Part shown: in pieces, positions 2,634 to 32,153 of the stretch
Position numbering within the stretch: position 1 is the first letter of the stretch
Layout of the letters: each line of letters starts with the position of its first letter
Assembly (NCBI GenBank): GCA_964016885.1
Contig: CAXHJY010001244.1
Coordinates: 1-34,350 of the forward strand
Source of the DNA: Eledone cirrhosa
Taxonomy: Eukaryota
DNA length: 34,350 bases
Direction of reading: 5' to 3'
Position numbers and translations under genes: made by a program
Notes under the pieces: model-generated
What the model saw: only the letters and a program-made list of their open reading frames with translations
What the model was told of the DNA's origin: nothing
Database searches by the model: none

Positions 2634-2731
2634 CTCCCTACCATGGTTTCAAAAGCGAAAGAAACAATAGCAGGTATTTTAAATCATTGGAATAACCAAC
2701 ACTAGAATAATTTGTTTTTTTCTTCAGGGGG
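2634..2731 (-). ncRNA. Type I hammerhead ribozyme motif, long degenerate helix II
   Basis: Minus strand: cccc-CUGAAGA-[70 nt, aaaa...uuuu base]-GAAA-CCAUGG-UA-gggag. Palindromic helix III ACCAUGGU, GUA site, helix I only 3-4 bp. Confidence 0.6.
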
Positions 2732-3166
2732 TATTCTTTGGAAAAACTGGAGATATTGATCATGAAGTATACAGATCATTTTGTTGCCAAAACTGCATGC
2801 TGTCCAACACATTGCTTTGTTGAACTACTAAATAAACAAATTTCTCTATATATATATTAGAACAATCTGATGAGCTTATAATGTTGCTAGAAATAGCAGC
2901 CAAAAAAACCGTCTAAATCAACTCTACATTAAAGGAGTTTTAAATATTAATTAAAAGATTATTTGTCTCTATTACTTTGACATCTCGATTAATTGATAAA
3001 ATATACAGATAAGATATCACTGAGAGAAGCAATTTTACAAATTCAACTTATGCCAAAAAACTCTATTTAGGAGAGTATAAGTCAAACAGACATGCTTAAT
3101 TTTTTTCTCTTCTGCTCCCTTCCTTACAAAGTATACTTGTCACCTATTATCATCATCATCATTTAC

Positions 3167-3368
3167 CCCTTTAGCCATTAAACCGGCCATATCCAGCCAG
3201 AATTCTCTCACCTCTTTCTGTTCAAACCAGCCATAACCAGCCACTCATACTAACATTAAGGCATTGTTCTCAATAATAACATCATTAAAATCTCATAGAT
3301 TCCATATTATGTGAGGTAATTATGTAAGATTACCATGAAAATATAATAGTAATGTAAATGCTAAAGGG
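3167..3368. mobile_element. piggyBac-type non-autonomous MITE nested in an RTE-type SINE tail
   Basis: TIRs ccctttagc(c)att / aatgctaaaggg. Right flank TTAA, left ttac (degenerate TTAA). Interrupts catcatcatt|taatatctgctctccctgctagcaagggt. Confidence 0.7.
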
Positions 3369-3564
3369 TTAATATCTGCTCTCCCTGCTAGCAAGGGTTT
3401 GACCAAGTCAGTACTGAAGTGAAGTTTCTGACAGGCCAAGTAGTCTACATCCTGTTTACATATGGTCCATGCTCTACTTCACATCAGATCATCTTTGGAT
3501 GATTCCAGTAGCATATGTTTGTTTTATAAGTTGTTGCTAGTCCTGCATTCAACACTCTTCCTAA

Positions 3565-3785
3565 ACAATCAAACAAATAAACAAGCAGGCATACAGGCAA
3601 GCATACATTCACACAAACACACACACACATACACACACACACACACACACGCACACACACACATAGACATACAAACACATACAGACTGACAAGCAGGCAG
3701 ACAAACATACAGACGGGCAAGCAGACAGACAAACAGACAGGCAGACAGACAGACAGGCAGACAGACAGGCAGGCAGACAGACAAA
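3565..3785. repeat. (CAAA)/(CA)n/(GACA/GGCA)n microsatellite, left flank of LINE
   Basis: Direct reading; the same tetranucleotide tract resumes at 7097-7225. Confidence 0.9.
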
Positions 3786-3789
3786 TGTC

Positions 3790-30054: not shown

Positions 30055-31180
30055 CTCTTTTAACCATCTTTTGTTCTTATATATTATATATACTCCAGTC
30101 CTACAAACTGTAGAGTGCTTCTTATCCGATATCTGCATTGCTTTATTGTACTACAATAAAACTCACCTCCTACATATATATATATATATATATAAATATA
30201 TATATATATATATATATATAAATGGAATAGAATGAAACGAAATTTCATTTCTCACTCTTAGTACGGCACACTTACTTAAATGTAAGTATGTATGTATACG
30301 TAACATACATATATGTATACAGACGTACAGTAGTATGTATATATATATATATACATGCATGCACACATATATATGCACGTATCGGTTTACCGCACATTAA
30401 TTATAATGCTCGGTTTGTTTGTTTGTAAACAAACAAACGGCCCGAATTACGCCGTACATATATGTATGTACGTATACATACATACTTATATATATATATA
30501 TAAACATTTATCGTACTGCCTCTCTGTTCTGTCCCTGTTCAATTTTTCATTATATATATATATATATATATATATATTATATATATATAATATATATATA
30601 TATATACACATATATATATATATATACACAAACACACACATACACTAACACACACACACACACACATACATGCACACATATAGACCTACACAAACACACA
30701 CATACATACACAAACACATACACATTGACCTACACAAACACACACATACACAAACAAACACACATACACAAACACACAAGTACACACACATCCCACCACC
30801 AAATAAAAACCGCCTCGATAACCAAAAATGTGGGTTAGACTACCATGTACGTTAATACTCATCTTTTTCCCTTTCTCCGAGGGTTCTTAACCCCACTATC
30901 AGGCTAAATAATTTTCTTTAATTTCTTTAGTCAAAATACGGTGATAGCTTACATTTATAATTTCAAACTCGCACGCTGTTTCTAAAATATTTTTACTTGA
31001 TATATATAAGTAAGAATATTATATATAAATCAGGAAAGCCCCGATCATTTCCTTCGAATGAAACAGTTCTAGTCCTGTAGAAGCCAGCTCTCTATTAGAT
31101 ATATATACTCTGCTATGTATTGAGTACCTTACTTACTGTGGTTTACCCCTGATTGAACCTGGGATACACACACACACATG

Positions 31181-31700
31181 CACCAAATAACCCCCCCCCC
31201 CCCCAAGAAAACGGACCCCCCAACACCAACCCCAAATAAAAGAACGGACACCCCCCACCAGGTCACTCCGTTTTTTTTATTTGGGTGCCCCGTTTTTTTA
31301 TTTGGGTGCCCCGTTTTTTATTTGGGTGCCCCGTTTTTTATTTGGGTGCCCCGTTTTTTTATTTGGGTGCCTCGTTTTTTTATGAGGGGGTCCGTTTTTT
31401 ATTTGGGTGTCCCGTTTTTTTATGGGGGGGGGGTTATTCAGGTGCCCCGTTTTTTATTTGGGTGCCTCGTTTTTTTATGGGGGAGTCCGGTTTTTTATTT
31501 GGGTGCCCCGTTTTTTTATGGGGGCGTCCGTTTTTTATTTGGGTGCCCCGTTTTTTTATGGGAGGGTCCGTTTTTTATTTGGATGCCCGGTTTTTTTATT
31601 TGGGTGCCCCGTTTTTTTATTTGGGTGCCCCGTTTTTTTATTTGGGTGCCTCGTTTTTTTATGAGGGGGTCCGTTTTTTATTTGGGTGCCCCGTTTTTTT
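31181..31700. repeat. Second array of the ~20-bp G/T satellite (31268-31700) with a short inverted portion (31181-31258)
   Basis: Same units as 26902-29577; C/A-rich rc units at left. Confidence 0.93.
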
Positions 31701-31723
31701 GTGTGTATATATATAGAAGGTAT

Positions 31724-31766
31724 ACGTTGCTGACGATAGCTAATAAGCTTGAAACTAGTACAGCGT
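31724..31766 (+). ncRNA. Minimal type I hammerhead ribozyme motif
   Basis: acguug-CUGACGA-u-agcu-aaua-agcu-u-GAAA-CUAG-UA-cagcgu. Palindromic ACUAGU, 6-bp helix I, GUA site. Confidence 0.8.
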
Positions 31767-32121
31767 TCCTTTGTCAGTGTTGAACAAACGAGCAACGATG
31801 GTTGCTAGACACTACGGCTTAATACGGGATGTTTGTTTACAAACACACCGAGCATTATAATAAATGTTCGGTGAATCCATACGTACATATATATATATGT
31901 GTCCATGTATGTATATATATACATACTATTGTATGTCTGTATACATATATGTATGTACGTGTACATACTTATATTTAAGTAACAGCCGTACTAAGAGTGG
32001 GAAATGAAATTTCGTTTCATTTTTTCCGTTTATATATATATATATATATATATTTCATTCGCACCGTTTCCTTTCGCTATATGTCTCTCCACCACTCCCC
32101 CTACACACCTTTTGAACTCTC

Positions 32122-32153
32122 ACCTGAAGAAGGGCTTATGCCCGAAACGTCGT
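32122..32153 (+). ncRNA. Minimal Penelope-type hammerhead motif
   Basis: ac-CUGAAGA-a-gggc-uuau-gccc-GAAA-CG-UC-gu. ACGU palindrome, GUC site, helix I only 2 bp; AATAAA ~40 nt downstream. Confidence 0.6.

Follow-up and report, generated by a model that had tools for sequence, protein, structure and literature searches.

The window analysed here is one whole unplaced contig of 34,350 nt (CAXHJY010001244.1) from the 3.0-Gb animal genome of Eledone cirrhosa. TA/CA microsatellites are plentiful in it, 47% of it matches repeats that occur at least three times among the genomic loci that we retrieved, and it carries nine hammerhead ribozyme motifs. Each motif belongs to its own dispersed, multi-copy repeat family (families A to I, Table 1), in agreement with a preliminary description of this DNA that had recognized Penelope-type hammerheads from many distinct families. 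Our analyses make it very probable that all nine are end-repeat ribozyme motifs of the Penelope type: six would mark the truncated ends of coding Penelope-like elements (PLEs), and three would lie in retrozyme-like units, for which copying in trans by those PLE enzymes is likely.

Nine hammerhead motifs in one contig

A type I hammerhead, with the CUGANGA, GAAA and NUH core, three helices and an open helix I, is present at nine of nine sites, each on or at most 15 nt from the place where an intact core had been described before. GUA is the cut triplet in four of them and AUA in two, and GUU, CUU and GUC occur once each. The helix II domains measure 13–115 nt and fold as hairpins, that of motif 2634 only weakly; the long-armed form consists of a 6–8-bp helix II, an internal loop and a distal hairpin, 45–115 nt overall. 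In several motifs the free minimum-energy fold differs from the hammerhead fold, several have a helix II without a closing G-C pair, and helix I of motif 32122 is only 2 bp long.

The first, strict descriptor recovered three of the nine motifs. A relaxed descriptor found eight, where dinucleotide-shuffled versions of the window (60 shuffled globally and 60 by block) gave 0.1 on average and 1 at most. With one helix II mismatch allowed, the descriptor found nine, against a mean of 0.15 (maximum 1) in 100 block shuffles; the mismatch was permitted in this final descriptor only after inspection of motif 13497, so the count of nine is slightly tuned, the shuffles having been scanned under the same descriptor. 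The excess over shuffled controls extends to a 400-kb sample of the genome (forty 10-kb stretches at round coordinates, mostly from large chromosomes), with 27 matches against 1–5 in 10 shuffles and 2.5 expected by chance. The bare CUGANGA word is not enriched in the window (15, against a shuffled mean of 11.5), and the signal therefore resides in the helices.

No Rfam hammerhead model reached its gathering score in the window, none matched at E≤10 within 31700–32240, and none was among the matches listed (150 of 315) in a window scan, leaving all nine motifs without an Rfam hammerhead match; the other Rfam output was microsatellite-driven miRNA noise and one tRNA-like head of a short interspersed element (SINE). 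The additional degenerate motifs that had been noticed were found as well, as half-hammerheads at 20098–20295 and ~12460–12645 and a broken core at ~31035. The embedding in (TA)n that had been ascribed to all the elements holds for eight, which have such a run at one or both ends (CA/TA in the case of 2634), and fails for the old copy at 24852, which has no flanking run.

Table 1. Hammerhead-bearing and related features of the window, with assignments made from sequence (RT, reverse transcriptase; EN, endonuclease; UTR, untranslated region; LTR, long terminal repeat)
Feature	Position	Strand	Description
Family A	2542..3091	-	retrozyme-like unit, non-coding and old (monomer ~486 nt, terminal repeat ~47 nt); GUA hammerhead 2636-2730 with 70-nt helix II domain
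Family B	9899..11183	-	5'-truncated Hydra-type PLE, 1.3-kb 3' UTR; hammerhead 9922-9993, GUA
Family C	13457..13706	+	Hydra-type PLE 3' end (RT and EN, 3.3-kb 3' UTR), short piece of tail in inverted orientation; GUU hammerhead 13497-13648 with 115-nt helix II domain
Family D	18151..18584	+	Neptune/Nematis-type PLE 3' end, inverted tail 18151-18255; hammerhead 18390-18432, CUU
Family E	19862..20031	-	Hydra-type PLE 3' end (short end); hammerhead 19910-19981, AUA
Family F	24719..25238	+	retrozyme-like unit, non-coding and old (monomer ~545-575 nt); GUA hammerhead 24867-24968 with 73-nt helix II domain
Family G	29916..30173	+	Hydra-type PLE 3' end (long end, tail); hammerhead 29977-30047, AUA
Family H	31714..32033	+	non-LTR retrozyme-like, part of a non-coding monomer of 420 nt that occurs in tandem; GUA hammerhead 31724-31766
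Family I	32050..32241	+	Neptune-type PLE 3' end (RT, CX4CxxC linker, GIY-YIG); minimal hammerhead 32122-32153, GUC
Family J	20098..20295	+	head-to-head pair of Hydra-type PLE 3' ends, cut inside helix II of U3-A8-core hammerhead (half ribozyme)
J-like variant	12460..12645	+	head-to-head pair, half hammerhead; resemblance judged by eye
Degenerate hammerhead	31030..31085	+	core broken; CUGAUGA in 4/5 relatives listed
H-related fragment	30218..30456	-	without hammerhead
H-related fragment	32257..32486	-	without hammerhead

Coding parents and non-coding units

Each motif served as the query of a genome search, in which 8–30 loci per family were retained out of the 40 best-scored candidates; for C, E and G, 57 lower-ranked matches were added to the top-match loci. 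The top-match loci are biased toward young copies, which affects the counts of intact cores given below, and the number of candidates is not a copy number: H yielded seven candidates, yet three H hammerheads occur in the 400-kb sample. PLE clade labels were assigned by protein motifs as defined in section 11 of PMC8557442.

Six motifs (9922, 13497, 18390, 19910, 29973 and 32122) are, to judge from their sequence, 5'-truncated 3' ends of endonuclease-positive (EN+) PLEs, four of Hydra type and two of Neptune/Nematis type. In their families the 5' ends are ragged and the 3' end is fixed, 34–207 nt beyond the cut site; most copies of every family are short. The preliminary description had taken all nine families to be non-autonomous. 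For these six this does not hold, because RT/GIY-YIG open reading frames (ORFs) occur in longer genomic copies; it does hold for 2634, 24852 and 31724, which are non-coding tandem or permuted monomers. The window itself contains no Penelope ORF, as had been stated: tblastn with eight PLE protein pieces gave 0 matches. PLE coding pieces are present in 13 of the 40 sampled 10-kb stretches of the genome.

Searching the genomic copies for linked PLE ORFs placed an RT or a GIY-YIG domain upstream in all six families. For family I, a same-strand upstream ORF was found in 15 of 30 loci, and L112 has a 574-aa single frame of RT, linker and GIY-YIG 1.3 kb upstream. The endonuclease lies upstream, again on the same strand, in 8 of 20 loci of D and 2 of 20 of B. 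In C, RT and endonuclease lie 3.3 kb upstream in L242 and L195, and the link from endonuclease to UTR recurs in L243; in G the endonuclease occurs as a frameshifted piece in L233, and the stretch from endonuclease to UTR matches 12 more loci. RT and endonuclease are in overlapping frames in C (L242) and in a further family, J, whereas the RT was not reached in the retrieved copies of B, D, E and G. Pfam recognized RVT_1 in I (E 1e-4, below the cut-off) and GIY-YIG in D (above the cut-off) and E (below the cut-off), and a homolog search with the C endonuclease returned two unnamed proteins only.

Of the Hydra motifs, the CxCX5C linker occurs in families B, C, E and J and in copies resembling G, although L233 of family G is without the first cysteine. 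In the endonuclease, B, C and E share CxxC, B and C also have CxH, and CCHH is absent. Of the motifs in the RT N-terminus, DKT was found in C, and RWK is present in other Hydra-like loci that are not linked to families B, C, E, G and J. Family I has DKG, a CX4CxxC linker and CCHH, and D has the CX4CxxC linker and CCHH. A partial tandem was found for I in L025 and L111, L025 consisting of the end repeat followed by the 5' UTR and ORF; no such arrangement of a pseudo-LTR (pLTR) followed by 5' UTR and ORF was found for B, C, D, E or G. None of the 30 family I loci has a tail or an inverted arm.

Some further features of these elements may be recorded here. Asparagine-rich low-complexity inserts separate RT and endonuclease in the Hydra-type ORFs of L242 (8593-9756), L203 (1261-1842) and L233, and resemble those of Adineta Penelopes (PMC3846280). 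The 3.3-kb 3' UTR of family C (L195, L197) consists mostly of TA/TG microsatellites, so the element would spread its own target sequence. The family C insertion in the window has an inverted duplication of ~230 nt (13066–13300, 13935–14140) on both sides. The uniform 5' ends of C and G in the top matches had the look of fixed-length non-autonomous elements, which the lower-ranked matches ruled out.

The remaining motifs, 2634, 24852 and 31724, lie in non-coding tandem or permuted units of ~486, ~570 and 420 nt, respectively, which are non-LTR retrozyme-like. Their longest ATG ORF measures 41–97 aa, no local similarity longer than 19 nt was found among A, F and H, and same-strand PLE coding matches precede 1 of 20 A loci, 0 of 20 F loci and 1 of 8 H loci, at a distance of 1.3 kb in both cases. 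Two or more consecutive intact hammerheads, the sign by which a 2026 preprint (bioRxiv 2026.07.22.740005) classes a retrozyme as active, were found for H (L245, L307) and not for A or F; array L245 has five tandem hammerheads. All 25 loci retrieved by the stretch between H units have monomer sequence on both sides and do not lead into an ORF. The tandem junction of H also occurs in contigs of the public runs X1 and X6, with a matching loose end in X4, which carries a second organism label; none of the runs listed is on record as RNA. In F, terminal repeats lie 565–574 nt apart in three loci (1.2-mers), and there is one dimer. In A, the sequence 3' of the hammerhead continues into the 5' part of the window copy in at least 11 of 20 loci, which gives the ~486-nt unit; no full dimer was seen. 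A and F are circularly permuted and old (copies 70–83% alike), and H is young. A short tandem unit of another origin was seen in L162 (G000:C28:22824455-22827680): ~215 nt long by eye, it derives from the J 3' end and tail, lacks the 5' half of the hammerhead, and is possibly a ribozyme-less retrozyme-like repeat.

A shared insertion scar and the possible role of the ribozyme

The PLE ends and the retrozyme-like units have an insertion scar in common, which comprises TA-repeat flanks, fixed 3' ends, and arms placed head to head with one short and one long 3' end. The short arm stops at a TA-like site inside the element, and the long arm continues for another 55–140 nt; in H this additional piece corresponds to the part of the monomer that follows. 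One short and one long arm were found in 22 of 22 E pairs, 27 of 28 G loci, 8 of 13 D rows and three of four cases in B. With duplicate and edge-cut loci excluded, the same is true of 14 of 20 H loci; the other six have one arm cut early, and none is long and long or short and short. Paired arms share more variants than random pairs (1.18 against 0.32 in E, 1.63 against 0.31 in G, 0.28 against 0.04 in C and 1.58 against 0.13 in H). Private variants shared between arms are few, 9 in 68 pairs, and fold-back copying and twin priming are indistinguishable. Tail and inverted arm are known PLE traits (PMC8557442, PMC3846280), and their occurrence in H is the main reason why we infer that PLE enzymes move this family.

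Two chimeric junctions bear on the same point. In L309 (1-1939) an H arm stands head to head with a Hydra-type J arm with no TA run between them, compared with 116 same-family TA-free junctions in the scan, and in L248 (6349-7411) an H arm stands in the same way against a Hydra-type G arm, a case seen by eye and below the scan filter. These two chimeras hint at mobilisation by PLE enzymes; nested insertion together with deletion would look alike.

The variability of the ribozyme core differs among families. Among BLAST-collected copies, the 11 core positions change less often than other positions do in five families, G (2/814 vs 226/10713), E, D, I and C, and the same is seen in F (p 0.0015). 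Intact cores number 61/77 in H, 49/59 in D, 50/55 in E, 72/74 in G, 20/24 in B, 55/58 in C and 42/44 in I. Two-sided helix changes are found between related families, where L281 carries a GC-rich helix II arm in place of the AU-rich arm of C, and among the helix I variants of H. Among the 435 descriptor matches in the loci, 33 signature groups have at least two matches, some of these groups being variants of one family; nine groups have a helix II domain of at least 45 nt and 21 have a palindromic helix III. Pairing in these groups is in part a consequence of the descriptor.

Family J departs from the common core. Its long copies are Hydra-type PLEs, and their hammerhead has a UUGAAAA core (U3-A8), a 5-bp helix I, a helix II domain of 56 nt, and a helix III in which 4 bp close a loop of 9 nt. 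The U3-A8 swap has been described in Cercyon elements of Schistosoma (PMC4209133). J (loci L316–L339 besides the window) is abundant, with nine long ends in the 400-kb sample, and most copies, those of the window included, are cut inside helix II. A strict U3-A8 scan gave 0 matches both for the window and for the 400-kb sample, and Rfam returned nothing for J. At first sight J resembled a PLE that has a new RNA motif in place of a hammerhead, a possibility ruled out by the full copies, which bear the U3-A8 hammerhead.

Several alternatives have to be set against these observations. That the motifs are chance matches in low-complexity, AT-rich DNA might be suspected from the unremarkable frequency of CUGANGA by itself, the silence of Rfam and the need for a relaxed descriptor; however, the block shuffles and the 400-kb sample, together with a position 34–207 nt from the fixed 3' end of its family for every motif, leave this explanation with practically no probability, and we count it as refuted by shuffles and family context. 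Nearly as improbable is the view that all nine are independent non-autonomous ribozyme families. It draws on the window's lack of a PLE ORF, on three families that truly are non-coding tandem units and on the predominance of short copies in every family, but six families extend upstream into GIY-YIG/RT ORFs and combine ragged 5' with fixed 3' ends. A, F and H might instead be DNA-level satellites or duplicated PLE end repeats whose coding parents were missed, and not mobile RNAs. Scoring was limited to the 40 best candidates per search, the monomers of L245 differ from the first by 5–16% and two of them have similar deletions, and a 2026 preprint permits local tandem amplification of a PLE end (bioRxiv 2026.07.22.740005). 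We nevertheless consider this unlikely, given that the copies are spread over many chromosomes and bear the PLE scar, the arrays are short (at most five hammerheads seen), the paired H arms share variants well beyond random pairs, and PLE coding matches upstream are scarce.

A different doubt concerns catalysis alone and is compatible with the element identities: the hammerheads could be catalytically weak or inert passengers that act as protein-binding or dimerisation signals. Copies retain sequence on both sides of the cut site, family I has a helix I of 2 bp and several motifs lack the G-C closing helix II; in addition, low in vitro activity has been published (PMC4209133), and some PLE clades proliferate without hammerheads (PMC8557442). 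On the other hand, core and NUH are kept across the 33 motif groups despite differing helices (in part a property of the descriptor), the U3-A8 family preserves the 3-8 pair through a double change, and the core is less variable than the rest in six families. We therefore regard inert passengers as a minority possibility, though one of real weight.

Our preferred reading, Penelope-type end-repeat ribozymes in truncated coding elements and retrozyme-like units, suggests the following mechanism, in which the insertion steps are modelled on established PLE biology. The GIY-YIG endonuclease would nick (TA)n and the RT would prime there, by target-primed reverse transcription. The RT would usually fall off early, such that 3' ends with the hammerhead accumulate, and each insertion would add fresh TA runs that attract the next one, leading to nesting. 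Nearly all genomic copies are dead ends. The hammerhead would cut tandem transcripts to unit-length RNAs, probably as a dimer via the palindromic helix III. Since inserted copies extend 34–207 nt beyond the cut site, the template would have been uncut or re-joined (circular) RNA. Dimeric cleavage and circular templates were proposed in PMC4209133.

A number of observations weigh against this reading. The link of family E to an ORF comes from a single long copy, L203; Pfam found nothing in five of the eight PLE protein pieces, and no full-length uninterrupted PLE ORF was recovered among the fetched loci. No autonomous partner with the same end sequence as A, F or H was found, and the evidence for their mobilisation in trans, which appears likely, consists of the scar and the two chimeric junctions. 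Core conservation and covariation across copies are uneven: H shows no conservation of its core (20/847 vs 287/10203), the core of B is more variable than the rest (4/264 vs 21/2803), that of A is not less variable (p 0.78, in an alignment that is poor at the core), and two-sided compensatory changes, which do occur between families, are rare within them (3/77 H copies at one pair). Motif I, with its 2-bp helix I, may be unable to fold on its own as a monomer. In vitro, the PLE hammerheads of PMC4209133 show poor cleavage, and of nine frog retrozyme dimers that were assayed, eight remained uncleaved (bioRxiv 2026.07.22.740005).

Abundance, known systems and other repeats

After subtraction of chance, the genome-wide density is ~1 hammerhead per 16 kb, or 1.1–2.8 x 10^5 per genome with U3-A8 cores and half motifs uncounted. 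The window is ~4-fold richer (9 vs 2.3 expected, p 0.0007 by a Poisson test that ignores clustering, one 10-kb sample having held six), and the earlier figure of one per 4 kb thus describes the window and not the genome. Hammerhead count correlates weakly with TA content (rho 0.33, p 0.03). The density per base is at least as high in Schistosoma. With descriptors stricter than ours, published counts amount to 126,247 in axolotl and ~5,000 in mussel (PMC7229834) and to 4,000–9,000 minimal hammerhead ribozymes (min-HHRs) in coelacanth and frog (PMC4209133). Our estimate of ~10^5 motifs is above the 2,000–9,000 min-HHRs per genome in PMC4209133, the descriptor used here being looser.

Families B, C, E, G and J resemble the Hydra-clade EN+ PLEs of PMC8557442 in their C-terminal GIY-YIG without CCHH, in CxCX5C and, in some of the families, in CxxC, CxH and (in C) DKT. 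They likewise target (TA)n, carry a type I hammerhead close to the 3' end, and have an inverted arm with 5' truncation as well as a tail at one end. They differ in their dimensions: 3' UTRs are ~0.9–3.3 kb, whereas the families of PMC8557442 are mostly <3 kb in total; tails are ~55–140 nt instead of 30–40; and helix II domains are 31–115 nt, compared with loops of 4–10 nt in the Hydra rows of File S2 of that paper, where a plant PLE row has a loop 2 of 35 nt. The U3-A8 core of J is also unlike the Hydra-clade PLEs described there. The supplement of PMC8557442 includes a Hydra family of Octopus bimaculoides, Hydra-1_Obim, with (TA)n target and hammerhead, beside whose rows family C was set by eye. 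Family I shares with the Neptune/Nematis PLEs of PMC4209133 the DKG, CX4CxxC and two cysteines inside GIY-YIG, as well as a minimal hammerhead that lacks loop III and has one additional base ahead of helix II; D shares the CX4CxxC linker and small helix III, and is Neptune or Nematis by its motifs. Solitary truncated copies predominate and sequence families are many, here as in PMC4209133.

The units A, F and H resemble animal non-LTR retrozymes (PMC7229834; bioRxiv 10.64898/2026.07.22.740005), which are likewise non-coding, low-GC (30–37%) tandem monomers with one type I hammerhead each, occur as monomers, dimers and short multimers, and share their genome with PLEs. The A and F monomers (486–575 nt) lie above the 150–450 bp of PMC7229834 and inside the 51–972 bp of bioRxiv 2026.07.22.740005, and their hammerheads have helix II domains of ~70 nt, unlike animal non-LTR retrozymes. 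The link between retrozymes and PLEs is made here, for retrozymes known from DNA, through the insertion scar, whereas earlier retrozyme work made it through phylogeny. Head-to-head inverted pLTRs with an optional tail on one arm also characterize the Penelope insertions of Adineta vaga (PMC3846280), in which a pLTR is sufficient for mobilisation in trans and self-priming was proposed. Copy number is low in that system; the present families are high-copy and TA-targeted, and the rule of one short and one long end can be counted. In Octopus vulgaris, 31 recently active Penelope-like families are reported, and hammerheads are not mentioned in the part of that source considered here (PMC13282606). 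In the literature covered, which does not extend to subscription papers, we found neither a cephalopod hammerhead census nor a description of animal PLEs whose helix II arms are as long as those seen here.

Hammerheads in the end repeats of PLEs are known, and animal retrozymes are regarded as non-autonomous passengers of PLEs. Both kinds of element have thus been described already, and the present ones are unusually dense and varied new members; less usual are the 30 and more motif groups, helix II domains up to 115 nt and a family with a U3-A8 core. The genome adds scale and test material, in the form of young, near-identical families with coding and non-coding members, very long helix II arms that are invisible to current libraries, and a countable scar common to parents and retrozymes. 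Two questions thereby become testable, namely whether PLE hammerheads cut and circular templates arise in vivo, and which enzyme moves non-LTR retrozymes. We tentatively entertain, as a combined view that is possible but would require all its parts to be right, that this is among the densest and most varied animal hammerhead populations (~10^5 intact cores in at least 30 families), many of them in an undescribed long-armed form missed by Rfam and standard descriptors, that its retrozymes are moved by Hydra-clade enzymes from circular RNA, and that the end rule and the chimeras record PLE copying.

Other repeats fill much of the remaining sequence. A perfect-looking inverted repeat of 400 nt between TA runs (7849–8250) belongs to a repeat family found elsewhere in the genome and is either a PLE end pair or a miniature inverted-repeat transposable element. 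A G-rich minisatellite with a 20–21-nt unit occupies 26902–29575 and 31273–31699 (~132 and ~21 copies); between the two lie a 10-kb unique-looking stretch and H/I pieces, partly duplicated (30190–30840 vs 32200–32800). SINE-like repeats with tRNA heads were found at 18893–19210, 12120–12430 and 26680–26900 (Rfam tRNA, 31.2 bits, at 18893–18950). A decayed long interspersed element (LINE) with RVT_1 and zf-RVT lies at 3735–7100 on the minus strand, and we take it to be L1/Tx1-like. RT-bearing LINE fragments, presumably RTE-like, are located at 12650–13065, 25960–26620 and 32840–34350, and have relatives with RVT_1 and a PHD domain. One LINE of the window has a named relative in Octopus bimaculoides, with 59% identity over 54%.

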